55,266 bases of DNA, from IMG/VR virus record IMGVR_UViG_3300047560_002167, positions 1-55,266 of that record, one strand, 5' to 3'. Made by a program: the position numbers and the translations under genes. Origin of the DNA: a virus (lineage: Duplodnaviria > Caudoviricetes). The notes under the pieces were generated by a model, which saw only the letters and a list, made by a program, of their open reading frames with translations, was not told where the DNA came from and searched no databases. Shown piece by piece: positions 18,401 through 38,900 of the stretch (position 1 is its first letter; the number at the start of each line of letters is the position of its first letter).

Positions 18401-21400
18401 TACACCTACATGGGTTAAACTACATGATGGTGCTAATCATACACTAGCTATCAAGAGTGATAGCACACTGTGGGTATGGGGTAAAAATGATGCAGGTCAA
18501 TTAGGTGACGGTACAGTTATCAACAGAAGTAGCCCGGTGCAAATTGATGGTAGCTGGAATAGTGTCAGTGCAGGACAACGTCATACATTAGCTATTAAAA
18601 CTGATGGTTCATTGTTTGCATGGGGATTCAACGTAACAGGTCAACTAGGTTTGAACTACAACGCACCGAGACTCAAATGGAAATCACTAGCTGCCGGCAC
18701 TTTCGCTGTTGCAATTGCACCTGATGATACATTGTGGACTTGGGGTCTAGGTACTGCTGGACAATTAGCAGATAGTACCATCATAAGTAGAAGTTATCCT
18801 ATACAGATAGGCATTGAAAATACATGGGATCAAATATCAATAGGTTATACTCATGCTATTGCAAAGAAAAAAGACGGTACAGTTTGGACTTGGGGAAGTA
18901 ACGCACACGGGGAATTAGGTGACAACACAATCGCTCCTAAATCTAGTCCTGTGCAGGTACCAGGTTTATCTAATGTACTCAGTGTTGCTGCGGGTGGATC
19001 ACATACTGCTGTTATTACAAGTGACAATAGATTGTTTATGTGGGGTAACAACATAAACGGTGCACTTGGTGATAACTCAACTAGCTACAGAAGTAGCCCA
19101 GTGCAGTTAGGTACTACTGGTATAGCATCGGTTTACTTGCAATTATATACAACTCATTTCTTAACCACTGACAACCGATTATTTGCTATGGGAAATAATA
19201 CTAGTGGTCAGTTAGGAGACAGTACAACATCAAGCAGAAGTAGTCCTGTTCAAGTCGGTGGTAGCTGGAATAATATCGCTTCTGTCTATAATTCTATCTA
19301 TGGTATTAAAACTGATAGTACACTATGGTCGTGGGGTGATAACACGAGCGGTAGACTAGCTCACGGCAATACTAACAACCTTCAAAGCAGCCCTGTACAA
19401 ATCGGTACAAGTAGTTGGAGTCAAGTATCTGCATTTGGAACTACAATGCTTGCTAAACGAATTGACAATACATTGTGGGTTGCAGGTAGTAATATAGGTG
19501 ATGGCACAACGTTCGGTAGAAGCACACCTGTACAACTAACGGGATATAGTGCAGGTAATCTAAGCATAGTACAACCTTCTCAAGTGGTTGATATTTCAGG
19601 CTTTGCTGACCAAAACAATAACATATACGTATGGGGAAACAATAACACAAGCGGTGTGCATGGTGATGGCACTACAATCGCAAAATATATACCTACTCCA
19701 GTATTACAATTTGCAAACGTAAGTAGTCCAACACAAGTAACTACCGGTAGCTGGAGTCAAGTAGCAGCCGGTGCATATCATTCATTGGCTATAAAGAGTG
19801 ATGGTGGCTTATATGGATGGGGTCTCAACGATAGAGGTCAAATTGGCGCAGGTATAGTAAGTGTTATCAATTGGACTAAGATTGTAGGAGACTTAACACA
19901 GACTTATGGTATCAGAAGTGATGGTACATTATGGGGATGGGGTAATAATGCTGCAGGTCAATTGGGACAAACAAACGTCACTAACAGAAGCTCGCCGGTA
20001 CAGATTGGTTTAGGTACGTTCAGTGATGTTGCTTCGGGCGATGCTCACGTTCTTGCAGTTACAACAGATGGTAAGTTATTAGGTTGGGGTAAGAATGACT
20101 ATGGTCAAGCCGGCGCATTAAGCTGGGCGCAAATATCTGCAAGTCAAGACCCCGCACCATTCATGTTTGCTATACGTAGTGACGGTGCATTATTTTCTTG
20201 GGGAAGAAATAACTTTGGTCAATTAGGAGATAGTACTACTACAGATAGAAGTAGTCCTGTTGTACTTGATACTAACAGTTGGTCACAAGTTAGTGCAGGT
20301 GTAAACCACGTATTGGCAAAACGTAATGATGGATTATTGTTTGCATGGGGTTTGAATAATGCAGGTCAACTTGGTGATTTCAGTACAGTAGCTCGTAGTA
20401 GCCCAATTCAAATAGGTAATGCGTATCCATCACTGTCATTTAACGGATCTAACGAATATTATACAGTAGCACCTAACACTACATTGGCGTTTGGTGCAGT
20501 TGATTGGACTATTGAAATGTGGGTGTTCTTGAAAGGGTATGCTGCAACATCTACTACTCTATATGATACTAGACCCGCAGGCACTGGTTCAACTGCAACT
20601 TATCAACTTATCAACATTTCATCAACTGGTTTCATAGGTTATAGTAGTGGTGCAGTTGTTTCTGACGGAATCGCAATTGTTCCATTAAACCAGTGGAATC
20701 ATATTGCAGTGTCTAGACAGGGCTCTAGTACTAGATTGTTCTTAAACGGTGTACAAGTTGGTACTACTATAACTGATTCAGTATCTTACATTGTAGGAGC
20801 TAGTAGACCTATTATTGGTAGTGATGGTAACGTACCGAACAGTGCAGGATACAACTTCAACGGATTGATGAGTAATATTAGAATAGTTAAAGGTGTTGCA
20901 GTATACACCGGTAACTTTACCGTACCTACATCACCATTGGAAGCAACACAATCAGCAGGTACTAATATATCTGCTATTACTGCAGGTCAAACTAGTTTGT
21001 TGACTGGTCAGGGATTGTTTGATAGATCAGGAAATAATTTAACTATCTCTCCGTTTGGAACTGCAACAGCCGCACCAGTGACTCCGTTTGCAAGTGTTGA
21101 CAAATTAGTAGGAAGAAATGTACTTCAATTGTCTGCGGGAGATTCTACTTCAATGGCAATTGGTAGTGACAATACACTCTGGGTGTGGGGGTTAAATGCG
21201 AGTGGGCAGTTAGGACAAAACAATACCGTAAATAGAAGTAGTCCGGTACAAGTTACCGGTAGTTGGTCATCTGTGACTGCATACAGCAGCCATGCAGCAG
21301 CAATTACTACGGATAATAGATTGTTTACGTGGGGCTTAAACACTAGTGGTCAGCTGGGTGTTAACGATGTAGTGACACGTAGTAGCCCTGTACAAGTTGA

Positions 21401-24400
21401 CGGTAGTTGGATTAATGTTGATGTTGGGTTCAATCATACAATTGCAATTACAACGGATAACACGTTATTTACTTGGGGTAATAATCAATTATATCAGTTA
21501 GGTGACACAACTACTATCAATAGAAGTTCACCCACACAAATTGCAGGTAGTTGGAGCATAGTTAAAGCAGGGGCATCAACGTCGGCAGCAATTGATACTA
21601 CGAATAAGTTGTACACCTGGGGTAATAATGCTAGCGGACAATTGGGTGTAGCCCCTATGTCATGGACTATGGCACTAAATCAGGCTATGGTGCGTTCTAA
21701 CGGTGTTGTGTATATTTGGGGTCAAAACGCATACGGTGAAGTTGGTGATGGTACTACTATACAGAGAAGTAGTCCTATTCAACTAGGATCTACAAGCTGG
21801 ACTGTAATTTCTAAAACTGGATATGTTGTAATGGGTATAAAACCTGATTACACATTGTGGGCATGGGGTATAAACAACCTTGGATCATTGGGTGACGGTA
21901 CTACTATCAGTAGAAGCAGCCCAGTTCAAATCGGCATTGATAAGAGTTGGATGAATATTTTTGTAGGTCAAAATCGTAGCTATGCAAAAGATTCAACTGG
22001 AATAATATGGGCCGCGGGCTCTAATGACGCCGGCCAACTAGGCGATGGCACTACAATTGATAGAAGTAGTCCAGTACAAATTAATGCGACCTCTGGATCT
22101 TGGAGTGTTATCTCAGCAGGTGTATCACATACATTAGCACTTGATAGTTTAGGCCAGTTATATGGTTGGGGTAGAAACGTTGAAGGTCAAATCAACAATT
22201 CACCATTAACATTTGCACAGATCGGTAACGGTGTAGCATTACGAGCAGATAATCAACTATGGGTATGGGGTAATAACGGAGGCGGCGCACTAGGTGATGG
22301 CGCAACTGCTAATAGAAGCTCGCCTGTGCAAATTGCAGGATTATGGAAATCTGCACAGTTACGTGGCGCCGCAGCAACTTATCCGGCAGGTAACGGTATC
22401 AGAACTGACGGTACATTGTGGGGTTGGGGTACTAATACATACGGTGGTATCGGAGACAATTCTACAATCAGTAGAAGCAGCCCAGTACAGATCGGCACTG
22501 ATACTAATTGGTTAAGAGTATTTGGTATAGATGACGCTAACTTTGCAATTAAGACAGATTACACCTTATGGGCATGGGGAAACAACAACGCAGGTCAATT
22601 AGCACAAAGTGATACGGTCAATCGTTCAAGTCCAGTACAGATTGCAGGCAGCTGGTCACTTATCTCAGCTAACGGTGGCACTGCATTCGGTATACAAACT
22701 GACGGTACATTATGGGCTTGGGGAGTAAACGCATATGGTGAATTGGGCCAGAATGATAGAGTATACAGAAGTAGCCCAGTACAAGTAGGAACACGTAGCT
22801 GGACGTCAGTTAGTGTAACTTATAATTTAGTAGCTGCTATTAGAAACGACGGCGGATTATTCACATGGGGTCATCCTACAAACGGCTCTATGGGTGATAC
22901 TACAACAATTGATAGAAGTAGTCCAGTTCAACTAGGAACAAGCAGCTGGACACAAGTTGCAACAACACACGGCGGTGTAGCAGCAATTAGATTAGACGGT
23001 GGTGTATTTACATGGGGCTCAGTAACAGGTGTACCAAGTACACTAAGAAGCAGTCCTGTTCAACTAGGAACAAGTAGCTGGACACAAGTGACTAGTGGAT
23101 ACTTTACTATTCATGGGGTGACATCTGATAATAGATTCTTTACATGGTCTACTCAAGGTTATCCACAGGGTGATAACACCACTGTTGCAAAGAGTTCTCC
23201 TGTATTAACTGTAGCTACACAAACTAACTTATCAGCAGTCTTAGTACCAGCGTATTCTATACCTACTCAAATTGGTAATCGCAGTTGGTCATTGATAGCA
23301 GCTGGGTGGCAGCACAGCATCGGGGTAACTACAGATAATACATTGTGGGGTTGGGGTTTAAATACGTATGGTCAAGTAGGTGATACTTCAACTGCAAACC
23401 GCAGCAGTCCTGTACAAGTATCAATTGCAAGTGGATATAGTTGGGCACAGATATCAGCAAACCAATCTGCAACAGCGGCACTAACAACAACTGGAGCATT
23501 ATGGACCTGGGGTATTAACAATGCAGGTCAACTAGGTTTGAACATTGCGAACACTGTGAACAGAAGTTCTCCAGTCCAAGTGGGTACAAGTAGCTGGATT
23601 AGTATATCTACTTCCACAAACAACATGTATGCAGTTGATTTAGCCTATAGACTGTTTACATGGGGTAACGGCGCATTTGGAGCGTTAGGTGATAATCAAA
23701 CAGTATCACGTTCTTCACCTGCATTAGTTGGCACAAACCTTGAAACGTTAATAGTATCACCTGTACAAGTTGGTAATAGTAGCTGGAGTATGTTAGCTGC
23801 TACTGGATACATGATGGCTGGTGTTACATCACCTCCTGCAATATTATATGCATGGGGTGTTAATACATACGGTCAATTAGGTATGGCCGATGCTGTTACT
23901 AGAAGTAGCCCAGTGCAAGTTATTGCAGGTCCGGTAATTCCAAACAGAAGCAGTCCGGTGCAGATAGCATCCGGTAGCTGGAGTCAAGTGACTGCAGGTA
24001 ATAGCTTTAGTGGTGCTATTCGTAGTGATGGTATGTTATTCATGTGGGGTATCAATTCATCAGGACAAATAGGTGATGGTACTACATTGAATAGAAGTTA
24101 TCCTGTTCAAATCAGCACAAGCAGTTGGGTTGAAGTTGGTTCAGGTACATCACATGCTATTGCTACTATGGCTAACAATAGTGTTTGGACATGGGGTAAC
24201 AATCAATATGGACAATTAGGTCAAAATGATAATGCTAACAGAAGTAACCCTATACAAGTAACATCTAGTTCATTCTCTCAAATTTCTTCTGGTGCAAACC
24301 ATGTTGTAGGTTTAATTGGTAATGCTATTTACGGATGGGGCGACAATTCGTTTGGTCAATTAGGAAGATCATTGTCTCCTGTAATCTGGGATACAGTGAT

Positions 24401-27400
24401 AATGGGACAAACAAGTTATGGTTTAAAGAACGGTAACTTATATGCATGGGGTTATGCTGCTGTAGCTGCAACATATGCAGGTTATGGTGACGGTACTACG
24501 GTCAATAAGAGTAGTCCGGTGCAGATAGGTACCAGTGCAGACAAATATACTTTACTAGCAAGTAATCTAGGTGCAGCACACATAGTTGCAGTAAAACCCG
24601 ATAATACTATTTGGGCATGGGGTATAAACTCAAACGGGCAATTAGGTGATGGTACAGTTGTTACACGATCAAGTCCTGTACAGATATTAGCTAAAGCACC
24701 AGGTGTTAGCAAGCTAGTACTCGGTGCCGCATATACTTTAATGCTTACAACCGGTGGAACATTATTTGGTTGGGGACTAAACACTAACGGTCAGTTAGGT
24801 CAAAATGATACTGTTGCTAGAAGCAGTCCTGTACAAATCGCAACCAATGTTATAGATATAGCAGCATGTAACTTAGCCGCAGCATATATTCGCAACGATA
24901 ATACATTATGGACATGGGGAGGTAACAGCGACGGCGGCCTTGCAGTCAACGATTTAGTATTCAGAAGCAGTCCAGTTCAAGTTGCTGGAAACTGGAAACG
25001 TGTAGTGGGTGCCGCAACAAACTTTGCGTTCTTACGCAATGACAATACTTTATGGACTGCCGGTGTTAACGCATCAGGGCAACTAGGTGATAACACTACT
25101 ATTAACAGAAGCACCCCAACTCAAATTGCCACTGGTGGTATGTGGCAAGATGTTGTTGCATCACATAACGGTCCTGCATTCATGGCAAAGGCACAAGATA
25201 ATTCTATATGGGTATGGGGAACTAACACTGTTAACGGTATACTAGGAGTAGGTGATACTCTTAATAGAAGTGCGCCAACACAAATTTTCTCTAAAGATGT
25301 TAATGCATCTTTCTTCCCGCAAAGTAGCATTTATTTCAGTTTAAAAATTAATAACTTATTATACGCTTGGGGACTAAATAACGTAGGACAATTGGGTATG
25401 GGTAACATTGTAGCCAGATCGGCTCCAATGCAAGTTGGCATCGCAACAGATACACAACAAAAATCAATAACGTTATTAGATAACAATAACTATACAAAAG
25501 TTAGCGCCGGCGCCCAACATACTGTTGCATTGCGTAGTAATGGCACTGCATGGGTGTTTGGTCAAAACACGTTTGGACAACTAGGGCAAGTCACAGATAC
25601 TATTAGTCGCAGTAGTCCTACACAAATAAATGCAGGACAATCATATAGTACTGTGTTTGGATTAGGATCGCAGACTCGTCTAGCTAGTGATAGTGCTACG
25701 TTTGTTGCAGGTAACAACGCTGCTGGACGTGGTGAACTAGGTACAGGTGATACTGTTGCTAGAAGCAGTCCGGTACAATTATCTGCCGGCACATCTGTAG
25801 GCGCTGGTGATAACACGTATGTTCTTCCTTTAAGAGTAGGTTTAAGTTCATGGTCACAAGTTAGTGGTGGTTACTCACATACCATTGCTATTCGCACAGA
25901 TAGTACACTGTGGGCCTGGGGATATAACGTAGGAGGTCCATTAGGACAAGGTACGACTGTTTCAAGAAGCTCACCTGTGCAAATCGGAACTAGTTCATGG
26001 GCATCTGTTTCTGCCGGAAACAGTTTCAACACTGCTATCAGAATTGATAACACATTATGGACATGGGGCTTGAATACTAGTGGACAACTAGGTGATAATA
26101 CAACATCAAGTAGAAGTAGCCCAGTGCAACTCGCTGGTCTATGGATAGATTCAGAAGCAGGTAATACATTTGCTGGTGCAATCGCAATTAATAATACTGT
26201 ATGGACTTGGGGAGCTAATGGATCAGGTGTTCTAGGCAACACTTCTTTAATCGCAAGAAGCAGCCCTGTACAAGTTGGTACTGATACGTTTAAAGTATTG
26301 TCACTGACAGAAAACTCTGTAAGTGCAATTGATTCATATAGTAATTTAGAAACATGGGGCGACAACTTATATGGTCAACTTGGTAATAATGGTAGTTACT
26401 ATAGCTGGAGTATTCTAAGTGGTGCCGGAAACTACTTCACTGCGATTCGTAGTGATGGTACTTTATGGACATGGGGCGAAAATACATACGGACAGTTAGG
26501 TAACAATACAACTAACTCTAGAAGCAGCCCAACACAAATAGGTACAAGTAGCTGGACTAATGTTAGAGCCGGTAACTCACATGTTGTTGCAATTAGAGCA
26601 GATGGCACTAACTGGACATGGGGATTCAATACTAGTGGACAGGTCGGTGATGGTACTTCTATTAATAGAAGCAGCCCAGTGCAAATTTCTACTTCGTTCA
26701 CTGATATTGCTGCCGGCGACACACATACATTAGCAATAACAAGTGATGGTACTCTATATGCATGGGGAAATAATAGTTCACTTCAATTAGGTATATACGA
26801 TGCATTCTCTCGTAGTAGTCCTACTCAAGTTCCAACTAGTGTTAAGTTTAAATCGTTAAGCGCCGGCACATCACATAGTTTAGCTATTGCAACTGATGAT
26901 ACGTTATATGGCTGGGGCTCTAACTTATATGGACAAGTAGGTAAATCTACTGCAACATTTACTGTTTCAGGTACAGCTACTACAATGAATGCACCTGGAT
27001 TTATAACATCACAGGGTAAGTTGTATGCTTGGGGTATTAATAATAATGGTCAACTAGGTGATAACACTACTATCAATAAACTTAGTCCAGTGCAAATAGG
27101 AGCATTAACTACTTGGAGTAAAATAATACCAACCTTCAGTAACAATAATACTTTTGGTTTCTTCAAGACAGATAATACACTATGGGTGTCTGGTAATAAC
27201 AGTAACGGTCAGCTTGGACAGACTGATACTATTACTAGAAGTAGCCCTGTTCAATTGTCAGCAGGCGCTGGTAGAAGTTGGACATCGTTTGTCTTTGGTA
27301 CTAGTTTTGGTATAGGAATAAAAGATGACGGTTCGTTATGGACTGTGGGTGATAATGTCGCCGGCCAATTAGGTGACGGTACGTTGGTTAACAGAAGTAG

Positions 27401-29939
27401 TCCAGTACAAATAGGTACAAGTAGTTGGAGTCAAGTCTCTGCTGGTAATGGCGTTGCTGGTGCACTTATGGCTGACGGTACACTATGGACATGGGGTAGT
27501 GGAAACTTAGGTGGACTAGCAGGAGGTACTACTGTATATCGTTCATCGCCGGCACAGATAGGTACTGGATATGCGTCAGTGTATATTACTGACCAAGGCG
27601 GACACGCAATCACTACATTAGGGCAATTGGTAGTTTGGGGCTGGAACGCAAGTGGTAACTTGGGTGATAGTACTACTGTTAACAAGTCAGGATTAACAAC
27701 AATTGCAGGAAGTTGGACTCAAGTTGCGAGTAATGGTTTTTATTCTCGTGCTGGTATAAGAAGTGATGGTACACTATGGACATGGGGTGAAAACAGTAAC
27801 GGTCAATTGGGAACGGGAGACACCGTATCTAGAAGTAGTCCGGTGCAAATTTCTGGAGGAGGCAGCTGGACATTAGTTACGAATATAGCCAGTGGTAGTT
27901 ATGCCGCCCGCAAGATAGATGGTTCAATATGGTCATGGGGCGGCAATCCCGGAGATAATACTAATAACAGAAGTAGTCCAGTTCAAATATATGCATCAGC
28001 AATGACACCGCAAGTATTCAATGAGCCTACTCAAGTTAGTACAAGTACTTGGAACGTGATAAGCGCCGGCGCCTTGTTTAGTACAGCAATCAGAAGTGAT
28101 AATAAGTTATTCTCTTGGGGAAATAACAACCTAGGACAATTAGGAGTATCATACTCATATAACCAAATTGCGGCAACTAGTATATATGGTACAACTATTC
28201 TAACACAAAACAACCAGATTTGGCAAACAGGTTATAACCTAAACGGTGGATTAGGTGATAACACTATTCTAAGTAGAAGTAGTCCAGTTCAAGTCGGCGT
28301 GTTTGGCGGAATAGCCGGGACCAATAGATATACTCAAGTTGCTTCTGGTTATTATGGAACTATAGCAATAAAAGATGATAGCACACTGTGGTCCTGGGGA
28401 TATAACACAGATGGGTCAGTCGGAGATGGAACTACTATCGCTAGATCAAGTCCAGTTCAAATATCAACCGGCTCATGGCAATTTATATCAACGACAACTG
28501 ATACTGGAGCTACGTCAAGAACATCATATGCTATTCGTGATAATGGTACTCTATGGTTATGGGGAAGCAATAGTTCAGGTCAGTTAGGTGATGGTACTTC
28601 TAACAATAGAAGTAGTCCAGTACAGCTCGGGCTAGACACATGGCGATTTGTTACTGGTTCATTGTTAACTACTGCCGCTATTCGCACTGACTACACACTA
28701 TGGATGTGGGGTAATAACACTAGTGGTAAATTAGGTGACAGTACTACTGTAGCTAAGAATAGTCCTATACAAGTCGCCGGCAGTTGGAGTCAAGTTAGTA
28801 TCGGTGGATATGCAAGTCACGTTGTTGCTTTGGATATGTCAGGTAGACTGTTCACTTGGGGATTCGGTGCAGCCGGACAATTAGGAAGCGGTACTGCTGC
28901 ATCCAGAAGCAGCCCATTGCAGGTTGGTACTCTGTCATATATCTCTGTTGCAGCCGGTACTAGTATGACTGCTGCTATTGATTTTTCTAACAGATTATAT
29001 GTGTGGGGTGCAGGCACTGCCGGCAACTTGGGTGATGGAACAACAGTGGGTAAGTCAAGTCCTATTCAAATCGCTGCGGATAAACAGTGGTTAAGTGTTG
29101 TTATAGGTGGAGATAGAGTTACTGCTATAACAACTGATAAACAAATTTGGATGTGGGGATCCAACGTTTACGGTGCTTTTGGTGATAACACTACAACTTA
29201 TAGAAGTAGCCCAGTACAAATTTCTGCGTTTACACCTAACTATCCACTAAGCTCACCTACACAAGTTGGTACTAGTAATTGGAGTGATATAACTGCAGGT
29301 AGTGACTTTACTGCTGCGATAAGAACAAACGGTTCGTTGTATGCATGGGGTAATAATGCATCTGGTCCATTAATGGCCGGAACTACTAACTCTAGAAGCA
29401 GTCCAGTTCAAGTAGGTGGCAATTTATCTTATGTACATGTGTCATCTGGATACTCAACGTTGTTAGTAGTTAACACAAATGATCCACTACAAGGTAACAA
29501 GTTGATAGCTAGTGGTGCTGGCACTGCAGGACAATTAGGAGATAATACAATAGTAAGTAAGAACTTACCGACAGCAGTATTGTTTAGTATCGCGGATAAT
29601 AAGAGTAATCCAACTCAAATTACATCCGACGATTATACTGGATATTATCAAAGTAGTCCAGTTCAAGTGGGAAGTGAAAGCTGGAACTTAGTTTCAGCGG
29701 GTGAAAATCACAGTTTAGGCATCAAATCCTCAGGTTTATTATTCGCATGGGGTTACAATCAAAATGGTCAAGTCGGTGATTCTACTACGATAAATAAGAG
29801 TAGTCCTGTACAAATAAGTACTGCAACAACATGGGTTGAAGCGGAAGCAGGATACAATCATAACGCAGTAGAAAAATCTGATGGTAGCGCATATACATTT
29901 GGTAACAACAACGATGGTCAACTTGGGGATGGTACATGA
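15474..29939 (+). CDS. Giant RCC1/BLIP-II beta-propeller repeat protein A (4821 aa; 91 blades plus one root strand; one LamG insert)
   Basis: Uninterrupted 14.5-kb ORF of ~50-aa repeats SWxxVSAGxxHxxAIxxDGTLWxWGxNxxGQLGDxTTxxRSSPVQIG, matching the RCC1 consensus. It ends mid-repeat at GQLGDGT. Confidence 0.93.
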   Translation: MSSLALRLLAAQQFAQGPNTTLYMWGNNSYGQLGVSSVNSYYSWSQLSSGASHSVAIRSDGSLFAWGNNTSGQLGDATTISRNSPVQIGVSSWSQVAAGAFHTIGIKVDGTLWGWGNNTYNQLNNYLLPNSSYPILISSDSWSQISAGGIHNSAIKLDGSLWTWGGNTSGQLGVNNAFTKFSLGTGHYAAIRADGTLWTGGTNASGQLGDGTTVAKLITDIPSVQIPGSWTNVMASSDLTFALRGDGTLWSWGANGFGQLGLGDTISRSAPIQISGQSNIVEIGTAIHDTAGMTTFWRDSAYRVFGAGYNTLGSLGDGTLSSRSSPVQVAFPPTQAGLGAGIGVGSSILTNGTLWVWGTNNYGQLGNNTTVNQSSPIQLGTDKWLAIAGNDGGLYGIKDNYTLWSWGNNIYGQLGDGTTISRSSPVQIAGSWSQIIGGYGSTYALDMNNTLWSWGRNDLGQLGQNTTINRSSPIQVSTNQWKQLESETYHVIGLRSDNAIFTWGQNHVGQLGLSDTVNRSSPTQVGTSSWSQIASNGTGTFAITVDNKLFTWGDGSQGDLGSTATVSRSSPVQVGTSSWTQIAAGGRTVIATRLDYTLWAWGFNLNGEVGDNTVIFRSSPVQISTSSWITIQSSGGTSFAARLDGTLWAWGGNTTGQIGDTSTLNRSSPVQVSIGSVFKGMKYLGGGSRASGALDFGNKLWTWGIGTSGSRGDGTTSNRAIAVLTMQDKLWNTVNFGWNSGRGIDSNYKLWSWGLNTQGQVGDGTTIDRSSPVQIGTMSWSTVAASSSLPSVVGATVDNTLWGWGTNQYNVLGLGEATTIARSSPVQIGNLGPVDFLKTTTSELSVAQTNGIFYALGGLKASTALGISTPTILPNFNLPYQRLSKVNNSSYSFVSAGKAHTTAITVDNKLFTWGDNSQGKLGDSTFVTRSSPVQIAGDWNKVSAGGSHTLAIDSQYTLYSFGSNYSGQLGTNTGNSTPTWVKLHDGANHTLAIKSDSTLWVWGKNDAGQLGDGTVINRSSPVQIDGSWNSVSAGQRHTLAIKTDGSLFAWGFNVTGQLGLNYNAPRLKWKSLAAGTFAVAIAPDDTLWTWGLGTAGQLADSTIISRSYPIQIGIENTWDQISIGYTHAIAKKKDGTVWTWGSNAHGELGDNTIAPKSSPVQVPGLSNVLSVAAGGSHTAVITSDNRLFMWGNNINGALGDNSTSYRSSPVQLGTTGIASVYLQLYTTHFLTTDNRLFAMGNNTSGQLGDSTTSSRSSPVQVGGSWNNIASVYNSIYGIKTDSTLWSWGDNTSGRLAHGNTNNLQSSPVQIGTSSWSQVSAFGTTMLAKRIDNTLWVAGSNIGDGTTFGRSTPVQLTGYSAGNLSIVQPSQVVDISGFADQNNNIYVWGNNNTSGVHGDGTTIAKYIPTPVLQFANVSSPTQVTTGSWSQVAAGAYHSLAIKSDGGLYGWGLNDRGQIGAGIVSVINWTKIVGDLTQTYGIRSDGTLWGWGNNAAGQLGQTNVTNRSSPVQIGLGTFSDVASGDAHVLAVTTDGKLLGWGKNDYGQAGALSWAQISASQDPAPFMFAIRSDGALFSWGRNNFGQLGDSTTTDRSSPVVLDTNSWSQVSAGVNHVLAKRNDGLLFAWGLNNAGQLGDFSTVARSSPIQIGNAYPSLSFNGSNEYYTVAPNTTLAFGAVDWTIEMWVFLKGYAATSTTLYDTRPAGTGSTATYQLINISSTGFIGYSSGAVVSDGIAIVPLNQWNHIAVSRQGSSTRLFLNGVQVGTTITDSVSYIVGASRPIIGSDGNVPNSAGYNFNGLMSNIRIVKGVAVYTGNFTVPTSPLEATQSAGTNISAITAGQTSLLTGQGLFDRSGNNLTISPFGTATAAPVTPFASVDKLVGRNVLQLSAGDSTSMAIGSDNTLWVWGLNASGQLGQNNTVNRSSPVQVTGSWSSVTAYSSHAAAITTDNRLFTWGLNTSGQLGVNDVVTRSSPVQVDGSWINVDVGFNHTIAITTDNTLFTWGNNQLYQLGDTTTINRSSPTQIAGSWSIVKAGASTSAAIDTTNKLYTWGNNASGQLGVAPMSWTMALNQAMVRSNGVVYIWGQNAYGEVGDGTTIQRSSPIQLGSTSWTVISKTGYVVMGIKPDYTLWAWGINNLGSLGDGTTISRSSPVQIGIDKSWMNIFVGQNRSYAKDSTGIIWAAGSNDAGQLGDGTTIDRSSPVQINATSGSWSVISAGVSHTLALDSLGQLYGWGRNVEGQINNSPLTFAQIGNGVALRADNQLWVWGNNGGGALGDGATANRSSPVQIAGLWKSAQLRGAAATYPAGNGIRTDGTLWGWGTNTYGGIGDNSTISRSSPVQIGTDTNWLRVFGIDDANFAIKTDYTLWAWGNNNAGQLAQSDTVNRSSPVQIAGSWSLISANGGTAFGIQTDGTLWAWGVNAYGELGQNDRVYRSSPVQVGTRSWTSVSVTYNLVAAIRNDGGLFTWGHPTNGSMGDTTTIDRSSPVQLGTSSWTQVATTHGGVAAIRLDGGVFTWGSVTGVPSTLRSSPVQLGTSSWTQVTSGYFTIHGVTSDNRFFTWSTQGYPQGDNTTVAKSSPVLTVATQTNLSAVLVPAYSIPTQIGNRSWSLIAAGWQHSIGVTTDNTLWGWGLNTYGQVGDTSTANRSSPVQVSIASGYSWAQISANQSATAALTTTGALWTWGINNAGQLGLNIANTVNRSSPVQVGTSSWISISTSTNNMYAVDLAYRLFTWGNGAFGALGDNQTVSRSSPALVGTNLETLIVSPVQVGNSSWSMLAATGYMMAGVTSPPAILYAWGVNTYGQLGMADAVTRSSPVQVIAGPVIPNRSSPVQIASGSWSQVTAGNSFSGAIRSDGMLFMWGINSSGQIGDGTTLNRSYPVQISTSSWVEVGSGTSHAIATMANNSVWTWGNNQYGQLGQNDNANRSNPIQVTSSSFSQISSGANHVVGLIGNAIYGWGDNSFGQLGRSLSPVIWDTVIMGQTSYGLKNGNLYAWGYAAVAATYAGYGDGTTVNKSSPVQIGTSADKYTLLASNLGAAHIVAVKPDNTIWAWGINSNGQLGDGTVVTRSSPVQILAKAPGVSKLVLGAAYTLMLTTGGTLFGWGLNTNGQLGQNDTVARSSPVQIATNVIDIAACNLAAAYIRNDNTLWTWGGNSDGGLAVNDLVFRSSPVQVAGNWKRVVGAATNFAFLRNDNTLWTAGVNASGQLGDNTTINRSTPTQIATGGMWQDVVASHNGPAFMAKAQDNSIWVWGTNTVNGILGVGDTLNRSAPTQIFSKDVNASFFPQSSIYFSLKINNLLYAWGLNNVGQLGMGNIVARSAPMQVGIATDTQQKSITLLDNNNYTKVSAGAQHTVALRSNGTAWVFGQNTFGQLGQVTDTISRSSPTQINAGQSYSTVFGLGSQTRLASDSATFVAGNNAAGRGELGTGDTVARSSPVQLSAGTSVGAGDNTYVLPLRVGLSSWSQVSGGYSHTIAIRTDSTLWAWGYNVGGPLGQGTTVSRSSPVQIGTSSWASVSAGNSFNTAIRIDNTLWTWGLNTSGQLGDNTTSSRSSPVQLAGLWIDSEAGNTFAGAIAINNTVWTWGANGSGVLGNTSLIARSSPVQVGTDTFKVLSLTENSVSAIDSYSNLETWGDNLYGQLGNNGSYYSWSILSGAGNYFTAIRSDGTLWTWGENTYGQLGNNTTNSRSSPTQIGTSSWTNVRAGNSHVVAIRADGTNWTWGFNTSGQVGDGTSINRSSPVQISTSFTDIAAGDTHTLAITSDGTLYAWGNNSSLQLGIYDAFSRSSPTQVPTSVKFKSLSAGTSHSLAIATDDTLYGWGSNLYGQVGKSTATFTVSGTATTMNAPGFITSQGKLYAWGINNNGQLGDNTTINKLSPVQIGALTTWSKIIPTFSNNNTFGFFKTDNTLWVSGNNSNGQLGQTDTITRSSPVQLSAGAGRSWTSFVFGTSFGIGIKDDGSLWTVGDNVAGQLGDGTLVNRSSPVQIGTSSWSQVSAGNGVAGALMADGTLWTWGSGNLGGLAGGTTVYRSSPAQIGTGYASVYITDQGGHAITTLGQLVVWGWNASGNLGDSTTVNKSGLTTIAGSWTQVASNGFYSRAGIRSDGTLWTWGENSNGQLGTGDTVSRSSPVQISGGGSWTLVTNIASGSYAARKIDGSIWSWGGNPGDNTNNRSSPVQIYASAMTPQVFNEPTQVSTSTWNVISAGALFSTAIRSDNKLFSWGNNNLGQLGVSYSYNQIAATSIYGTTILTQNNQIWQTGYNLNGGLGDNTILSRSSPVQVGVFGGIAGTNRYTQVASGYYGTIAIKDDSTLWSWGYNTDGSVGDGTTIARSSPVQISTGSWQFISTTTDTGATSRTSYAIRDNGTLWLWGSNSSGQLGDGTSNNRSSPVQLGLDTWRFVTGSLLTTAAIRTDYTLWMWGNNTSGKLGDSTTVAKNSPIQVAGSWSQVSIGGYASHVVALDMSGRLFTWGFGAAGQLGSGTAASRSSPLQVGTLSYISVAAGTSMTAAIDFSNRLYVWGAGTAGNLGDGTTVGKSSPIQIAADKQWLSVVIGGDRVTAITTDKQIWMWGSNVYGAFGDNTTTYRSSPVQISAFTPNYPLSSPTQVGTSNWSDITAGSDFTAAIRTNGSLYAWGNNASGPLMAGTTNSRSSPVQVGGNLSYVHVSSGYSTLLVVNTNDPLQGNKLIASGAGTAGQLGDNTIVSKNLPTAVLFSIADNKSNPTQITSDDYTGYYQSSPVQVGSESWNLVSAGENHSLGIKSSGLLFAWGYNQNGQVGDSTTINKSSPVQISTATTWVEAEAGYNHNAVEKSDGSAYTFGNNNDGQLGDGT
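20427..21090 (+). other. LamG/ConA-like lectin domain inserted between RCC1 blades (protein A)
   Basis: SLSFNGSNEY...DWTIEMWVF...NQWNHIAVSR...FNGLMSNIRIVKGVAVYTGNFTVPT. Boundaries are approximate. Confidence 0.85.
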
Positions 29940-32900
29940 GTAACAATACTAATCGCTCGTCCTTAACGCAAATTGAAGGTAAAACAGGGGCTTATGCTAT
30001 AAGCCCCGTTAGTGTTGGCTCTAGTTGGAAAAGTTTAAGCATCGGTTCAAGCCACGCTGTCGCTATCAAGAATGACGGAACACTATGGTCATGGGGTAGT
30101 AACCAATATGGTCAAGTGGGTAATAATACTGTTTCAATACAGTCTAGTCCTGTTCAAATTGGAACAAGGTTATGGTTAAGCGCCAGTGCTGGTGCCAATC
30201 ATTCAATGGCAATTCGTAGTGATGGATTGTTATTCGGCTGGGGTCAAAATTCTAGCTACCAACTAGGTAACAACGGTCTCGCATATAGTAATTATTGGAG
30301 AATGGCGTCGCCTGGATATTCGCATACTATGCTTATTAAAGCTGACGGTACATTGTGGGCTGTCGGCGGAAATACTCAGGGTCAACTAGGTAATAACACT
30401 GTAGCTGCGGTCACTAGTCCTATCCAAATTGGAACTAGTTCATGGTCTATGGTGACTACTTCTACATTGAACACGTTTGCGATAGATATTAATGGTAGAT
30501 TGTTTGCATGGGGTTATAACTTAGCAGGTGACTTAGGTTTAAACGATGTAACTAACAAAAGTAGCCCGACACAAATAGGAACTAGTTTATGGACTACTGT
30601 TGCAACTACTGCCGGTTCGGTTTCAGCTAACGATGCGGGATATGCGATTGATATTAACAAGAATTTGTTTGCATGGGGTTTTGGTACTAACGGTCAATTA
30701 GGCGATAACACTATTGTAAGTAAGAGTAGCCCTGTATTCGTCGGTGCTAATTTTATCAAAGTTGCCGCAACTGACGGTGCAGCCGTTGCTATAGATGGTA
30801 CTGGTAATATATTCACATGGGGTAAAAATGACCTTGGTCAACTTGGTCAAAATGATACAATTTCACGCAGCGCACCCTCTCAAATACCTTCATCATATGT
30901 TTGGTCTAATGTAGTAACCGCACAAAATACAATGTTTGGTTTGACTAACACAGGATTATTACTTGGCTGGGGCCAAAACACTGCAGGTATAATCGGAGAT
31001 AGTACTAATATCAACAGATCCGCACCTGTGCAGATTATGACTAATGTAAGTAAACTATCATCTAAAAATTACTTACAAACAAGCGTAATTGACACGTCAG
31101 GTAGTCTATGGATGTGGGGTGACAACACCGGTGGACAATTAGGTGATGGTACAACTATTAGTCGCTCTGCTCCAGTGCAGATAGGCAACTCAAAATGGGC
31201 AGCAGTCACTTCTACTATTAGTGGAACATTAGGTGTAACTACTGATAACAAACTATGGGCTTGGGGTAAAGATTCAGGCAACTACGAATTATATTTTACT
31301 ACCTCCGATGCACTTGCAGCAACTTATAGAAGTAGTCCAGTTCAAACTGGTGCTGGTTTGTTATCCGATAGCCCGGTGCAAATAGGTACTAGTTCATGGG
31401 TGTCTGTTAGCGCAGGTACAGACCATACCTTAGCAATTCGCAGCGATAAAACTTTATGGGCTTGGGGTAGTAACTTGGTAGGTCAATTGATTGCCCCTCA
31501 GTTCGCCGGACAATTAGTGAGCAGTCCAACACAAGTTGGTACGAGTAGTTATGTTACTGTCAGCGCCGGCAACAGTTTCAGTTTAGCCATTACTAGTGAT
31601 AACAAGTTAATATCAGCAGGCAACAACACTAATAACCAATTGGGTTCAAGTACGTTCTCTAATTTAAACACATGGTCAAAAGTTGTTGAGTCTACTGGAC
31701 ATGCATTGGCAATCAGTTCAGATGGTAAACTATTTGCATGGGGTGATAATACTGGCGGACAATTGGGTGATGGTACTACGATAAGTAGAAGCAGTCCAGT
31801 TCAGATCGGTACTGATACATGGACAAACATATCAATAAATTCAGAAAGCACTACTATAAATTTAGCAAGTAGTTTTGCTATAAGAGCCGACGGTAAACTA
31901 TTTGCGTGGGGGAATAACGCTAACGGACAACTAGGTCAGAATGACTTGATTGCTAAGAGTAGTCCAGTTCAAGTTGGTGCGGGGAAATCATTCGTTCAAG
32001 TGTCTGTTGGACCCACATTCCATGTGGTTGCAATTGATAGTGTAGGATCATTATGGGCTTGGGGATTTAACACACAGGGTCAGTTGGGCACCGGTGACAC
32101 AATTGCTAGGTCAAGTCCAGTGCAGATAAATTCAAACAGCTGGCTTCAAGTTGCAGCCGGTTATAGTTATGCAAGCGCAATTCGCAGTGATGGAATGTTG
32201 TTTGCATGGGGCGGTAATATCGGAGGGCAATTAGGCCTAAATGATATTATAAACCGTAGCGTAATGACGCAAATCGGTACAAGCAGCTGGAGCCAAGTCT
32301 TTACAGTTCAGGGCACTGGTCAATCCGGCCCACGCCTTGCACTTCGTAGCGATGGTACATTGTGGGGGTCTGGCTACAATGCCAATGGACAACTAGGTGA
32401 TGGTACTTTGACTAATAGAAGTAGCCCAGTGCAAGTTGGCACATCTACTTGGTCTAAAGTAGAAATTCACAATAATGCAACTATAGGTATCCAGCAAGAT
32501 GGCAGTTTATGGTTCTGGGGGGTTAAAGCTCCGGTAGCAGGTTCTGATAATGCAACAGCCAGTTTTACATATAGCTGGACTCAAGTTGCAGGTGGTAGTC
32601 AAAATAGTTATGCAATACGTGCAGATAGCACATTGTGGGGCTGGGGATATAACATTGCAGGCCAAGTGGGAGATAACACGACTGCATCTAGAAGCGCTCC
32701 AGTTCAAATCACCATAGGGTCAGCATTGTGGAAAGATGTGACCGGCGGTGGCTCATTTGCTGTTGCAATTAATTCTCAAAATAGACTGTTTGCATGGGGT
32801 AAAAATGACCAAGGTCAATTAGGTATAAACCACACCAATAATGCAAGCTCACCTGTGCAAATTGCAGCACCGTTATCTAGTTTTTCTAGTGTCAACTCAG

Positions 32901-35900
32901 GATATTATCATTCATTAGCTATTGACACTGCAGGTAAACTGTGGTCATGGGGAAGTAATAGTTTTAGACAACTAGGATTGACTGATTCTGCATACTCATA
33001 TCTAAGTTGGAGTCAAGTTTCAACTAGTGCGAGTCATTCAATGTTCATTCGCAGTGATGGTAGATTGTTTGGTGTTGGTTATAACGGCTACGGTGCCTTA
33101 GGTGATGGTACTGTAGTAAACAAGAGTAGCCCGGTTATAATCGGTTCTGAAAAATGGATTGATGTAAGCGCAGGTCAACGTGGCGATGGCAGTACAGCAA
33201 ACTATACCATAGCAATTCGCAATGATGGAATGTTGTTTGCATGGGGATATAACCTAGCCGGCGAATTAGGTGATATTACAACCATCAGTAGAAGTAGCCC
33301 TGTTCAACTAGGCACAAGTAGCTGGATTGCGGTTGCTTCCGGCACTAGTGGTAATTACGCTATTCGCAATGATAATATGTTATTTGCATGGGGAGGAGAT
33401 GCACCTAGTACTTTCTCTGGTGGTCCAGTTAGATTCTATGCTAGTAGTAGCCCTGTACAAGTAAGCACAAAACCTTATTCTAAAATATTCGCTAACCCAT
33501 CCGGCAGCCCAGGATCTACCCCGATCACAGGAGCATATGCCTTAGCATTGGATACTGATAATAAATTATGGGCTTGGGGTAACAATAGTGTAGGTCAGAT
33601 GGGACGATTAACTTACGATAGTTGGACTAGTGTAGCTATTACAAATAACCAATCTCGTACTATGTTCGGTATCAAAGAAGATGGCGTTTTGTATGCATGG
33701 GGAACAGATTTACAAAGCGTTGCTGATTACACACAGACATACAATGGACCTACACTCAAATCAAGTCCCATCGTAGTAGGTAATACGACACCTATGTATA
33801 CTAAATTTGCCTCAGTCTCGGGTGGCTACAGCCACATGTATGCAATTTCTACAGATGGTAAGTTATATGGCATGGGCGTACCTAACGTAGGTTATGGTTT
33901 ACCTGATGTATATAGCTGGAGTCAAATTAGAAGCACCGGTATTACTACATATGCAATTCGCAATGATGGCTTAATGTTTGCTTGGGGTAGAGATGATTAC
34001 AGTCAAATGGGCGACTTTGGTACGGTTCAAAACCGTAGTGCTCCCATTCAAATTGGAACTCTTAGCTGGAGTCAATTAGCAACTGCTACAGGTCAAGTCT
34101 CATCTATGGCAGCTATCACAAGTGATGGCAGATTGTTTGCATGGGGATATAATAACCAGGGTCAATTGGGCTTAGGTGATACTAATGGTAGGCAATCTCC
34201 AGTTCAATTGGGTGTAGGTTATAGTTGGAGATCCGCAATAGTAAGTGTTAACTCACACGTATACATGCGTGATGATGGTGTGTTATTTGGTTCCGGATCT
34301 AATACTAACGGGGTATTTGCTGCAGGTGCTGCACCTGCATCATTAAGAAGTAGTCCAGTTCAAATAAGTTCTACTAACTATAATTCAGTAGTGTTCGTAG
34401 CAGAAAATTCTACTAGTACTACTGCAATATTAGCCATTGATAAGAATCAAAACTTATTCACCTGGGGTTCTGGTTTATACGGAATGTTGGGCGATGGTAC
34501 TACTATTAATAGAAGCTCACCTTTACAAATTGGAACAAGTAAATGGCAATCAGTCGCAGCCGGCAATAGAACGGCAGCAGCTATTACTGTTGATGGTAGA
34601 CTGTTTACATGGGGCGGAGATGCCGCATACTATACATTAGGCTCAAACGACAAATCATGGAGATTAATTTATTCAGCTGGTTCTACCACGTTTGGCATTG
34701 ATTATGCACAAAGATTATGGACGTGGGGCGCCGGCAGTAACGGTATATCAGGAACCGGTACTACAACCAGCAGAAGTAGCCCGGTTCAGATAGGTACAAG
34801 TAGTTGGGCACTGGTCTCTGGTTCAGGTGAACATGCTTTAGCAACCACATTCGGAGGCGGATTATGGACATGGGGGCGAAATATCTTTGGTGCATTAGGA
34901 TCTGCCAACACAGTAGACAGATCCAGCCCAGTGCAAATTTCTTCAGCTTCGTTCCCTGTAATTGTTGCTGGTCCTTACCAATCATCTGCTGCGATTGATT
35001 CATTGAACCAATTATGGACATGGGGAAGTAACGGCGGTGTACTAGGAGATGGTACTACAATAAACAGAAGTCAACCCGTACAAATCACAGGTACATGGGC
35101 TGATGTTAGTATCGGTAATAGTGTAATGTATGCTATCAGAAGTGACCGCACGCTATGGACATGGGGTCTAAACACTAGTGGTCAATTGGGATTGAACAAT
35201 GCAAATAATTATTCAAGCCCGGTACAAATAGGTACAAGCAGTTGGTTAATGGTATCTGCTGGATCTAAAAATTTCGTAGCTGCAATTGACGTTAATAATA
35301 GACTATTCACTTGGGGCGCAAACGTTGAAGGTGAACTAGGAGATAACACAACTGTTAGTAAGTCTAGTCCTGTTCTAGTAAGTTCCGGCACTGCCGGTGC
35401 AATAGCATTCACTGGATCAAGTAGTATTGCATCTACAAGCAATATTAATCTTGGCGCAGGTTTATTTACAGTAGAAGGCTGGTTCTATAGAACATCTGCG
35501 GTAGGTTCTAATACGTCATTCTGGGGTTCTACGAATGGAACAGGTTCAACCCCTAAAATAATATTCAATCAAATGAACACCGGTGAGCTTCGTGTATGGC
35601 AAAACGATGCAGCAGTACTGACTACCTCTACTACTTTAGTCCCACAAAATACTTGGGTTCATATTGCAGTAGTAAGAGATACAGTAGCGCCCGGCGCGAT
35701 TAAAATTTATGTAAATGGTCAATTACAACCATCAACTACAAATCCGTCAGGTGATTACTCAGGTATAACTGGCACATTTAATATTGGTGCTGATGGTGAA
35801 GGTGCATATTCTCCTTTCCCTGGATCTATTTCAAACTTTAGAGTAGTAACAGGTGTAGCAGTATACACTGGTAACTTCACAGTTCCTACTAATGTGTTGA

Positions 35901-38900
35901 CTACATCGCAATCATCAGGTACTAACATTAGTTCAGTAACAGACTCACAAACTCAATTGTTAGCATATGCCTCAACTGCGAATGATGCATCAATCTATGG
36001 GCGAACTTTAACACTAACTAATGCCAGTACTACATTCTCGGGACCGTTTAACGAACGATGGTTGCAGGCAGTCGCAAATAACGGCTCAGTGTTTGCACGT
36101 AGAATCGATAACTCTTTCTGGGTATGGGGCAACAACACCGGTGGCGAACTTGGTTTAAATGACGCTATTGCTAGAAGCAGTCCAGTGCAACTTAGTGCAT
36201 TCAGTAAAGAAAGCATCGTTCTAAATAACATAACTATACAACCTAGTATAGGTAATAACAACACTGTGTTATATAACAACGGAGCTGGACTAATGTGGGG
36301 TTATAATGCAGCCGGTGGTATCGGTGATAACACTACAGTCAATAAATCAAACCCAGTTCAAATTGCACCTGATCCCTCACGTTCTAGCCCTGTACAAGTT
36401 GGTACTGATTATTGGACTCAAGTTGTAGGTGGTGCCTATCACTTTATCGGACAACAAACTAATGGTAAACTATATGCCTGGGGTAACAACGCACAGGGAC
36501 AATTAGGTACAGGTGATATTGGTTTCCGTGGTAATCCTACATTAATATCTAATACTCTTTATTCATCAGTTCAACTGTCAGCCGGTGTATCTAGTACATA
36601 TATGAAAAGTACTGGTAAACTATATAGTTGGGGTGGTAATAACTATGGTGAAATGGCTGCGGATAATTCAACTATAGCTAGAAGTAGCATTACACAAGTT
36701 GCAACTAATAGTGTTTACACGTTACAGCAATTCTTCAATGGTTCAAGTTATACACAAGTTGCTAGTTATAATCACACTGGTGCAATCAAAGATGACGGTA
36801 CATTGTGGTTGTGGGGTAGAAACAACAATGGACAACTAGGAGACTTGACTGTTGTAGATAATAATAGCCCAGTACAAATTGCAGGTAGTTGGACACAGAT
36901 TGAAGTCGGCTACTCTACTACGATGGCTCTCAAAACAGATGGTACATTATGGGTTTGGGGTAATAATAGTTACGGACAGTTGGGCCAAGGCCACACTGTT
37001 GCTAGAAGTAGCCCAGTGCAAGTTGCCGGCAGCTGGAATAAGATAGCTGCAACCGGAAACACTGTGTTTGCGATTCGTACAACAGGTACTCTATGGGCAT
37101 GGGGCAACAATACATACGGAGTGTTAGGTTTAAATGATATTGTTCATAGAAGCAGCCCTGTGCAAGTTGCTGGTAGTTGGACTAATATCACTGCACTCGG
37201 TGACAGTATATTTGGTGTTAAAACAGACAACACTTTATTTGCATGGGGTGATAACTCTTCAGGGCAACTAGGTGTTAATGATTTAATTAATCGTAGTAGT
37301 CCAGTACAAGTAGCTAACGCAGGTACTACTGCAGGTGCATTCATCTTACCTAAATCAAATCCAAACCAGAATGGCAACTCAGGCGTAAATGCAACATCAT
37401 TTATTAAAGACAATGTGTTGTATACGATAGGTAACAACGTGCAGGGTCAATTAGGTTTCGGTGCTGTGACTACAGCTTCCAGCCCAGTGCAAGTTGGTAC
37501 TTTTGTTTCAACATACGTTAATAGTCCTATTCAAATAGGTACTGATAGCTGGAGTCAAGTATCAGCAGGTACAGACCACGCGGCAGCTATTTCCCCTGAT
37601 GGAAGATTGTTCACATGGGGTGGTAATGGTTCAGGTCAATTGGGCGGCGGTGGCGGCGAATATCTAAGTATCTCTACTAACGGTAATTCAAGTACTAATA
37701 GCTCAGGTAGTAACTATGGATTCACCGGTTATGTTCGCAGTGACGGAACATTGATGATGGTTGGATTCAATGGTGGTGGACAATTAGGTCAGGGGACCAC
37801 AGGTAATACCTATAGTAGCCCGGTTCAAGTAGGTGCTACTGGATACTGGAAACAAGTATCAGTCGGCGCAGCAAGTGTCACATTAGCAATTGATTATCTA
37901 GGTAGATTGTGGGCGTGGGGTTATAACGTCTGGTCAAACTTGGGTACTAATGATAGTACTAATTACTCTAGCCCGGTGTTAATTGCGGCTACCAACAGTT
38001 GGGTACAAGTAGCAACTGCAACACGTACTTCATATGCTATTGACACTGCTGGCAGATTGTGGGCATGGGGCACTAATACTTACGGTGGTATAGGAGATGG
38101 TACTACAATTAACAAGTCTAGTCCAGTGCAAATTGGAACTGGTACTGATTGGAAGGCAGTGTACAATGGAGCGTGGTCACTACATGTACATGCTATAAAG
38201 AATGATGGTACATTATGGGCTTGGGGATATAATGCCAACGGTCGCTTGGGTGATGGCACTACAGCCCACAAATCTAGTCCTGTACAAATTCCAGGTAGCT
38301 GGACAATGGTAAGTCATAATGGTGAATATTACACTGAAGGTTGGGATAGTTATGGTGTGAAAACCGATGGCACACTTTGGACCTGGGGCTTCCTGGCAAC
38401 GTCAACGACACCAGTGCAACGTTCTAATGCTAGTGTCACAAGTTGGTTAGGTGTATATGGATACATGTATGGTGCATTTGCTTTAGCAAGTGATAATTAT
38501 TTGTATTACATGAACGGAAACAATGACGCTAATACATATTTTAATTGGTCAGGCGCCGCAACCGGTGTTGTAACTCAACCGGTTGCACTTAGTACAAGTG
38601 TAAGTTTCAAGAACATAAACACATGGCAAAACTTTAGACTTGGACAAATATGGCCAACACCTGATAACAAATTATACGTATGGGGTGATAATAGCTCTGG
38701 TTTATTGGGACAGAACGACCAGATTAGCAGAAGCAGTCCTATACAACTAGGTGCAAATCCAAGTGCGTTTACACCCGCGCAAGTAGTATCAGGTAGTTGG
38801 AATCAAGTCAAAGCCAGTTCAAGTCATACAGTTGCGATCAAGAATGATAGCACACTATATGCATGGGGTTTAAATGCATCAGGTCAGTTAGGCACAGGTG

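Follow-up and report, generated by a model that had tools for sequence, protein, structure and literature searches.

The window analysed here is the whole of a linear viral metagenome record of 55,266 b (IMGVR_UViG_3300047560_002167), with a completeness estimate of 16%. It encodes on the plus strand two consecutive giant open reading frames (ORFs), designated A and B, which consist of RCC1 repeats and overlap by the four bases ATGA. The strand-level parse described below would place the boundary between them inside one β-propeller blade, the last blade of the outermost propeller of A, in the loop that leads from the GQLG turn, where strand C ends, to the outer strand D. In this study, the split of the DNA was found to be real, old and conserved, and the bookkeeping of strands closes only across the two chains.

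Two giant RCC1 genes and their junction

The two ORFs and the elements found at their junction are as follows.

15474..29939, + strand: ORF A, 4821 aa, parsed as 13 nested RCC1 propellers, one outer strand short, and an orphan strand that would belong to the root propeller
29936..45307, + strand: ORF B, 5123 aa, parsed as 12 nested propellers plus the root propeller; its first two strands are orphan D strands
29936..29939, + strand: ATGA stop/start overlap of B's ATG with A's TGA, B lying in the -1 frame of A; kept as ACATGAGT in an orthologue and two further relatives
29925..29929, + strand: GGGGA, a Shine-Dalgarno-like word 6 nt upstream of B's ATG, on a rare GGG glycine codon; weak when taken alone

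Pfam recognizes RCC1 repeats from end to end in both proteins, with PF25390 in 23 stretches of A and 22 of B, and PF00415 in 53 and 41, respectively. The bit scores of A are 2520.7 on PF25390 (cut-off 150) and 1693 on PF00415, and those of B are 2156.3 and 1400.4. With scores above gathering, both proteins belong to the RCC1-like repeat β-propellers (PF00415, PF13540, PF25390).

The C-terminus of A is ...GQLGDGT; it reads FGNNNDGQLGDGT (also ...YTFGNNNDGQLGDGT) and is followed by TGA at 29937-29939. B begins with MSNNTNRSSLTQIEGKTGAYAISPVSVGSSW (ATG-AGT...; opening residues MSNNTNRSSLTQI). Upstream of this start the frame of B is open only from 29906, next to a TAA at 29903-29905, and the ATG at 29936 is its first start codon. 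The stop codon of A overlaps the start codon of B, as in translationally coupled genes, and the overlap is conserved in relatives. Further ATGA overlaps are located at 47708, 51221 and 53159 of the window. Fusion of the two frames would give 4821+5123 = 9944 aa. A preliminary description of this DNA had reported the ATGA junction in the -1 frame, the GGGGA upstream, the three other overlaps and the fusion product of about 9,944 aa, all of which agree with the coordinates and with an ORF check.

Strand parse and structure models

With 18 canonical repeats taken from A and B, two small hidden Markov models were built, one for the three-strand unit ('ABC', consensus SWSQVSAG..HS.AI..DGTLW.WG.N..GQLG) and one for the outer strand ('D', consensus D.TT.NRSSPVQIGT). 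The repeats were then read by a stack parse, in which an ABC unit after an ABC unit opens a level and a D strand after a D strand closes one. The linkers mostly contain one D strand per unit, while some units have no D and some linkers carry two or three. Read as one string, A+B gave 23 closures, 21 of exactly seven blades and two of 14, nested up to six deep, with a root of seven blades and nothing left open. The three-strand units amount to 182 = 26x7, with 92 in A and 90 in B, which accords with the earlier remark that the break splits the blades almost evenly. Shuffling of the linker classes (n=200,000) never produced levels that were all multiples of seven, and the most size-7 propellers obtained in any shuffle was 8 versus the 21 observed. 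This points to an architecture in which A+B would form 26 seven-bladed RCC1 propellers, nested in one another's GQLG-to-D loops.

Parsed alone, neither chain closes. In A, the root blade (A 21-34, 15534-15575) stays open and the outermost propeller, P1, consists of six complete blades and an open seventh. In B, two D strands at the start are unmatched. The strands concerned are listed below.

29826..29927, + strand: A 4785-4818, final three-strand unit of A, read as strands A-C in blade 7 of P1; its D strand is missing from A
29951..29974, + strand: B residues 6-13, NRSSLTQI, putative donor D strand for A's last blade, preceded by a 6-residue lead of canonical length
29996..30019, + strand: B residues 21-28, AISPVSVG, second D strand, which would close root blade 1 opened by A's N-terminus
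15534..15575, + strand: A residues 21-34, TLYMWGNNSYGQLG, lone strand C with GQLG loop, which would open root blade 1
45188..45304, + strand: C-terminal tail of B (B 5085-5123), last D strand, then ...DTGAGNNNSGYIKNI, the latter read, by likeness only, as the A and B strands that give root blade 1 its velcro closure

As judged from the sequence parse, each chain lacks a strand of its own: the last unit of A has no D, and the root blade has no strand C in B. The terminal extension of the partner holds what is missing, as B 1-28 contains two D strands ahead of its first three-strand unit. The independent parse therefore bears out the earlier proposal that the boundary falls inside a blade and that the bracket opened at about 15575 is closed by AISPVSVGS. 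The orphan strand NRSSLTQI of B keeps the D-strand consensus NRSSPVQI. The loop from GQLG to RSSP is 6 aa long in 101 of 110 loops, and the lead of B before RSS is exactly 6 aa. A keeps three more residues after GQLG, and a loop read through the junction would have 9-10 aa, the longest of the 110. Ordinary one-propeller phage RCC1 proteins have strand C at the start and D, A and B at the end, the same form as A's start and B's end, which suggests that A+B is shaped as one velcro-closed unit. The ...IKNI end of B is present in relatives too.

Several other features were observed within the two ORFs. A perfect 9-bp hairpin (GGGGCTTAT GCT ATAAGCCCC) is located at 29987-30007, in the part of B that separates its two putative donor strands; by estimate, chance alone would give about one hairpin of this kind per 55 kb. 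Three non-RCC1 inserts of ~240-266 aa, at 20376-21116, 35342-36058 and 38894-39691, each follow a D strand. Pfam Laminin_G_3 (concanavalin-like lectin) is found in two stretches of B, the best being B 3015-3161, and the insert of A, unlisted by Pfam, is similar by eye. An antisense ORF of 164 aa within A (25871-26365, - strand) is most likely a by-product of repeat composition.

An AlphaFold model was obtained for B 1-536, with a mean predicted local distance difference test (pLDDT) value of 78.5. It covers the following feature of the parse.

30269..31369, + strand: B 112-478, complete seven-bladed propeller, an insert that separates the three-strand unit B 80-111 from its D strand

The modelled propeller (model 118-477) matches UVR8 (4dnv_B) with Z 49.4 and a root-mean-square deviation of 2.0 over 348 of 368 residues, and HERC2 RLD2 with Z 43.4. 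A seven-bladed fold is thus found both in the model and in the parse, where 21 of the 23 closed propellers and the root have seven blades. The position of the modelled propeller, between B 80-111 and its D strand, agrees with the parse as well.

The models also bear on the possibility that the split is real and the strands are not swapped, in which case the last blade of A and the first blade of the root would be incomplete or completed otherwise, with A and B separate or bound via other surfaces. The first 24 residues of B are disordered in the model (pLDDT below 50), though this is expected either way. The swap is without support from any structure or complex prediction; co-folding of a minimal P1 (three fragments, A 1-175, 874-973, 4717-4821) with B 1-32, run without alignments, returned a score of 0.00 and a mark of 0.34, which speaks neither for nor against it. 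What this reading leaves unexplained is that the orphan strands of B keep the D consensus and are conserved in relatives despite having no partner unit in B, and that the strand count balances exactly only across chains, both in the window and in an orthologue of three chains. The chain ends are, moreover, the most conserved parts, and one homologous loop, intact in the window, is interrupted in relatives, as described below. We consider two unswapped chains unlikely.

The split in other assemblies and in relatives

A single 30-kb gene might have been broken by an error of sequencing or assembly or by the very recent loss of one base, since the window is a metagenome-assembled fragment and one added base would fuse the frames. 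Simulated single-base deletions gave an ATGA-type boundary at 551 of 13,866 positions in A and 552 of 14,772 in B (~4%), so that ATGA alone is no proof of a genuine boundary. 'Clean' boundaries with at most two out-of-frame codons, as at the junction, were rare in the same simulation (103/13,866 and 124/14,772; 0.7-0.8%), and the site has no homopolymer beyond GGGG. The exact B sequence is present on two contigs, and a 38,656-b contig encodes a 3583-aa protein that matches A 1239-4821 at 100% identity and has the same stop. Assembled contigs from four public runs (X1 to X4) cover the junction. Those of X1 and X2 cross it with 0 differences and 0 gaps; a 229-b contig of X3, from another study, covers 29762-29986 with 20 differences and 0 gaps, and a 1853-b contig of X4, from a third study, covers 28901-30629 with 140 differences and 0 gaps. 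The X3 and X4 contigs are ~91-92% identical to the window, i.e. ~8-9% divergent, and no indel is listed between 28819 and 31436 in the contigs of the four runs. The preliminary description had left room for a missing base at 29936 and had named an extra base there as decisive against the split; no such extra base is seen in the assembled contigs, two diverged strains included. The ATGA junction also recurs in an orthologue of 36-38% identity and in two further relatives, and an error or recent deletion is refuted as far as assembled contigs can show.

A protein search at lengths of 2651-8437 aa yielded 685 matches at E <= 1e-30 among 1330 candidates, many of them with the same ends. The orthologue was found as a pair, L101 and L102, each on its own contig and from a different metagenome. 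Its junction sequence is ...FGNNSNGQLGDGT-stop / MSINTNRSSLTQV... (MSINTNRSSLTQVAGYTTQYSLSPIQIG...); the overlap is ACATGAGT as in the window, and GGGGGA lies upstream. Its identity to the window is 36% over the last 1000 aa of A and 38% over all of B. The last 100 aa of A are 71% identical and the 100 aa before those only 37%, while the first 50 aa of B and the first 100 aa of A are both 60% identical; the chain ends are thus the best-kept parts.

Scanning of 258 fetched loci revealed six distinct junctions of this kind, plus one false match. Four have ATGA (the window, L101/L102/L247, L181 and L182), and the other two, L023 and L190, have TAA directly followed by ATG in the same frame. The check on homologous loci called for in the preliminary description therefore shows the same loop split in the orthologue and in other relatives, with several stop/start geometries. 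The exact junction pattern with 0-3 free bases had no match in viral contigs. Scans for relatives of the B N-terminus gave best hits of 42% in viral contigs and 42% in metagenome contigs, all in ordinary-sized RCC1 genes, with records near the window possibly omitted. A protein search with a 400-aa piece found no orthologue among proteins of 701-2000 aa.

In the orthologue, the unit is encoded by three consecutive giant frames (G001, 49,857 b, and G002, 75,325 b; loci L101, L102 and L259-L266). The frames have 3289, 3107 and 5169 codons by search, or 3286, 3105 and 5159 aa from each ATG, with a total of 11,550 aa and about 30 propellers. The extra boundary is of the form ...FGQIGNNT-stop, TAATG, MLSWTT..., and the middle chain opens directly with a three-strand unit (MLSWTT...). 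The chain end at this boundary matches A 3582-3639 best, with 58.6% identity (next best 46%). The counterpart loop of the window, at A about 3639-3644, is uninterrupted.

26373..26411, + strand: loop GQLGNNGSYYSW, A about 3634-3646, continuous in the window; second gene boundary in relatives (GQIGNNT-stop / MLSWTT..., TAATG)

The presence of a cut in relatives, at a loop that is intact in the window, indicates that cutting leaves the fold unchanged. The orthologue parse closes only with all three chains joined, giving 210 = 30x7 units and a root of seven. In the closing setting, 20 of 24 levels have seven blades and the others 21, 14, 12 and 16. We regard it as a weaker, post-hoc replicate of the joint closure.

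The geometries of the boundaries are relevant to a further alternative, namely that a single protein of ~9,944 aa is made by recoding, through -1 ribosomal frameshifting in the clade of the window and stop read-through in the TAA/ATG clade, with separate products as by-products. It would account for the blade sequence that runs on across the junction, and giant single chains of up to 7937 aa do exist in this protein class. Relatives, however, cut the same loop as ATGA (-1), TAA/ATG (0) and TAATG (-1), each with its own ATG, so the frame relation is not conserved and a single common recoding device is ruled out. None of the marks of programmed -1 frameshifting that were looked for at the junction (slippery heptamer, downstream structure, conserved frame relation) was found. 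The sequence CAA CTT GGG GAT GGT ACA TGA contains no X XXY YYZ heptamer. The only strong hairpin, that at 29987-30007, begins ~48 nt downstream, with none at 5-9 nt, and is not kept in the orthologue L101; the fold of the 121-nt junction is ordinary (z = -0.84), with 39 of 200 shuffles folding as well. The loop made by read-through would also exceed all 110 loops in length. Recoding appears quite improbable on this evidence, though somewhat less so than an error.

An automatic terminus test was applied to 220 giant RCC1 proteins (at least 2600 aa). In 31 of them the chain stops no more than 7 aa past GQLG, and in 23 it opens with a D strand (about 10-14%). Pairs on equal-length contigs sum to 8,230, 9,458 and 11,533 aa, and split units with pairable parts total about 8,200-11,500 aa. 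Among the 220 proteins, 19 are self-contained single chains, the longest having 5,840 aa. The contrast in size fits a limit on chain length and is no proof of it. Giant RCC1 proteins of 2,600-7,937 aa (P0127-P0390) are common in public metagenomes, nearly all named only 'alpha-tubulin suppressor-like RCC1 family protein'. The RCC1 matches of 700-2000 aa have lengths that cluster near multiples of ~360 aa (about 1100, 1450 and 1800).

Taken together, A and B are likely to be two separately translated halves of one structural unit, with the chains locked by reciprocally swapped strands. From the sequences we infer a restart of translation, a physical strand swap and a role in the virion. On a single message, the ribosome would stop at the TGA and very probably restart at the overlapping ATG, giving about one B per A. 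The first 28 residues of B would serve as a donor extension, NRSSLTQI completing the last blade of A. Root blade 1 of B would be composed of AISPVSV, A 21-34 and the two C-terminal strands of B (...GAGNNNSGYIKNI). The two chains may thus be held by strands swapped both ways, as assigned by sequence likeness, and the cut would fall at an edge strand, in the type of loop into which entire propellers are inserted elsewhere. The reciprocal clasp put forward in the preliminary description is the best-supported mechanism for this arrangement: the split it assumed is real and its strand logic fits the parse, while the physical pairing is predicted from that logic. Its suggestion that the split avoids a 10,000-aa chain is a guess.

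Several points weigh against this interpretation of A and B. The parse depends on ~50 non-canonical linkers that were classed by eye ahead of running it, and two of its levels have 14 blades. In the orthologue, closure was reached in one of 24 settings of four ambiguous linkers, chosen post hoc, and its levels of 12 and 16 blades do not fit. GGG is the codon in 5 of 147 GxLG loops, and any 5-nt Shine-Dalgarno-like word occurs by chance in 16 of the 147, so the GGGGA is weak evidence for the start of B. The AlphaFold model of a parent-plus-insert region (A 2059-2770, 5-row alignment) was poor, with a mean pLDDT of 55.2 and a predicted TM-score of 0.44, and thus no model shows a parent blade closing round its insert. 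X1 and X2 belong to one sample, possibly the source sample, and the second contig with the same junction is perhaps from the same or a sister sample. Junction coverage by assembled contigs leaves room for rare extra-base variants. No fused form above 7235 aa was present among the best 150 protein representatives, but A, B and the orthologue are absent there too, and the search extended to 8437 aa.

The 14-blade levels, at 16005-18137 (A 178-888) and B units 63-76, are probably two tandem propellers in one loop; a missed bracket pair is possible.

We further propose, tentatively and with somewhat more doubt than confidence, that phages may build propeller 'megaproteins' of 8,000-11,500 residues as two or three chains, cut only in the GQLG-to-D loop and rejoined by donated β-strands. 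The cut would be structurally silent, as suggested by the same loop being continuous in one phage and cut in a relative, and would be enabled by coupled translation, with the first strand of each new chain docking on the blade just finished. If true, this is a natural, conserved gene fission inside a β-sheet, and a ceiling on the length of a workable chain may lie behind it. The junction shows that the border between two genes can be located within one β-sheet and persist over long periods of evolution. In gene calling and domain annotation, A and B would pass for two 'RCC1 repeat proteins' without relation to each other, and the inability of either half to close by itself would go unnoticed. 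The two-chain unit of 9,944 residues in the window and the three-chain unit of 11,550 residues in the relative bear on how very large proteins are made, and A/B would be a natural system in which to study how strands are complemented and how chains assemble during translation. Public metagenomes hold many members of the family, which is almost wholly unnamed.

Gene surroundings and known systems

The genes neighbouring A and B resemble those of a T4-like myovirus. The ORF at 11212-14400 has 46-50% identity to virion structural proteins, and the GenBank phage records matched number 86, 57 of which are Synechococcus phages by name. By blastn, the window had no match to GenBank phages. The other neighbours with matches in PHROG are as follows.

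1554-7175: ORF, baseplate wedge and virion structural protein
14413-14937: ORF, tail fibre protein
14904-15473: ORF, tail fibre assembly
downstream of B: methyltransferases and ribonucleotide reductase

The ORF directly before A (14904-15476, 189 aa) has tail-fibre-assembly and chaperone-like PHROG matches, and its TAA abuts the ATG of A (TAAATG). This is consistent with a fibre-like role of A/B in the virion and with dependence on a helper, and the tail-fibre-like neighbours point to the virion surface. The host phage is probably T4-like, infecting aquatic bacteria, and A/B probably a fibre or surface protein.

In repeat sequence and fold, A and B are like the RCC1-like seven-bladed β-propellers (RCC1, UVR8, HERC2 RLDs; PF00415 / PF25390), whose ring is closed by both chain ends (velcro). 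To our knowledge, the RCC1 domains described so far each form a single propeller that is self-contained within one chain. Unlike these, A/B would nest 26 propellers in GQLG-to-D loops, up to six deep, over two genes. Among phages, the jumbo coliphage phAPEC6 encodes eleven RCC1-like proteins of unknown role, for which a DNA-ordering role is guessed in the available part of the paper (PMC7247149). A and B share with them the phage origin and the unknown role, and differ in that nesting, giant size and split blades are not mentioned in that part and in that the neighbours of A/B point to the virion surface. The matches of a literature search, as far as their text was available and with subscription journals and supplements outside it, included no paper joining RCC1, cyanophage and propeller, and none on nested or split phage RCC1 propellers. 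The class of nested-propeller phage proteins is widespread and without description in the literature searched, and its split is a conserved design.

Translational coupling via overlapping stop and start codons (ATGA, TAATG) occurs in phage and bacterial operons. A and B are like coupled genes in their ATGA overlap, which has a purine-rich word 6 nt ahead of it; the window holds three more ATGA junctions. They are unlike the usual coupled genes in that they would encode two parts of one β-sheet and not two folded units.

In chaperone-usher pili, a fold that is short of an edge strand obtains it from the N-terminal extension of the subunit that follows (donor-strand complementation). The N-terminus of B would complete the last blade of A in a similar manner. 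Unlike in the pilus system, the fold is a propeller blade and not Ig-like, the exchange would be reciprocal between two different giant chains, and no chaperone or polymerisation is known.

In-trans completion is known for the β-propeller Sec13 (PMC2922654). To its open six-bladed ring, a partner (Nup145C, Sec31 or Sec16) supplies a whole extra blade. As in Sec13, the propellers of A/B would be completed by strands of another polypeptide. Unlike in Sec13, single strands would be swapped within blades and in both directions, at positions where relatives have a continuous chain.

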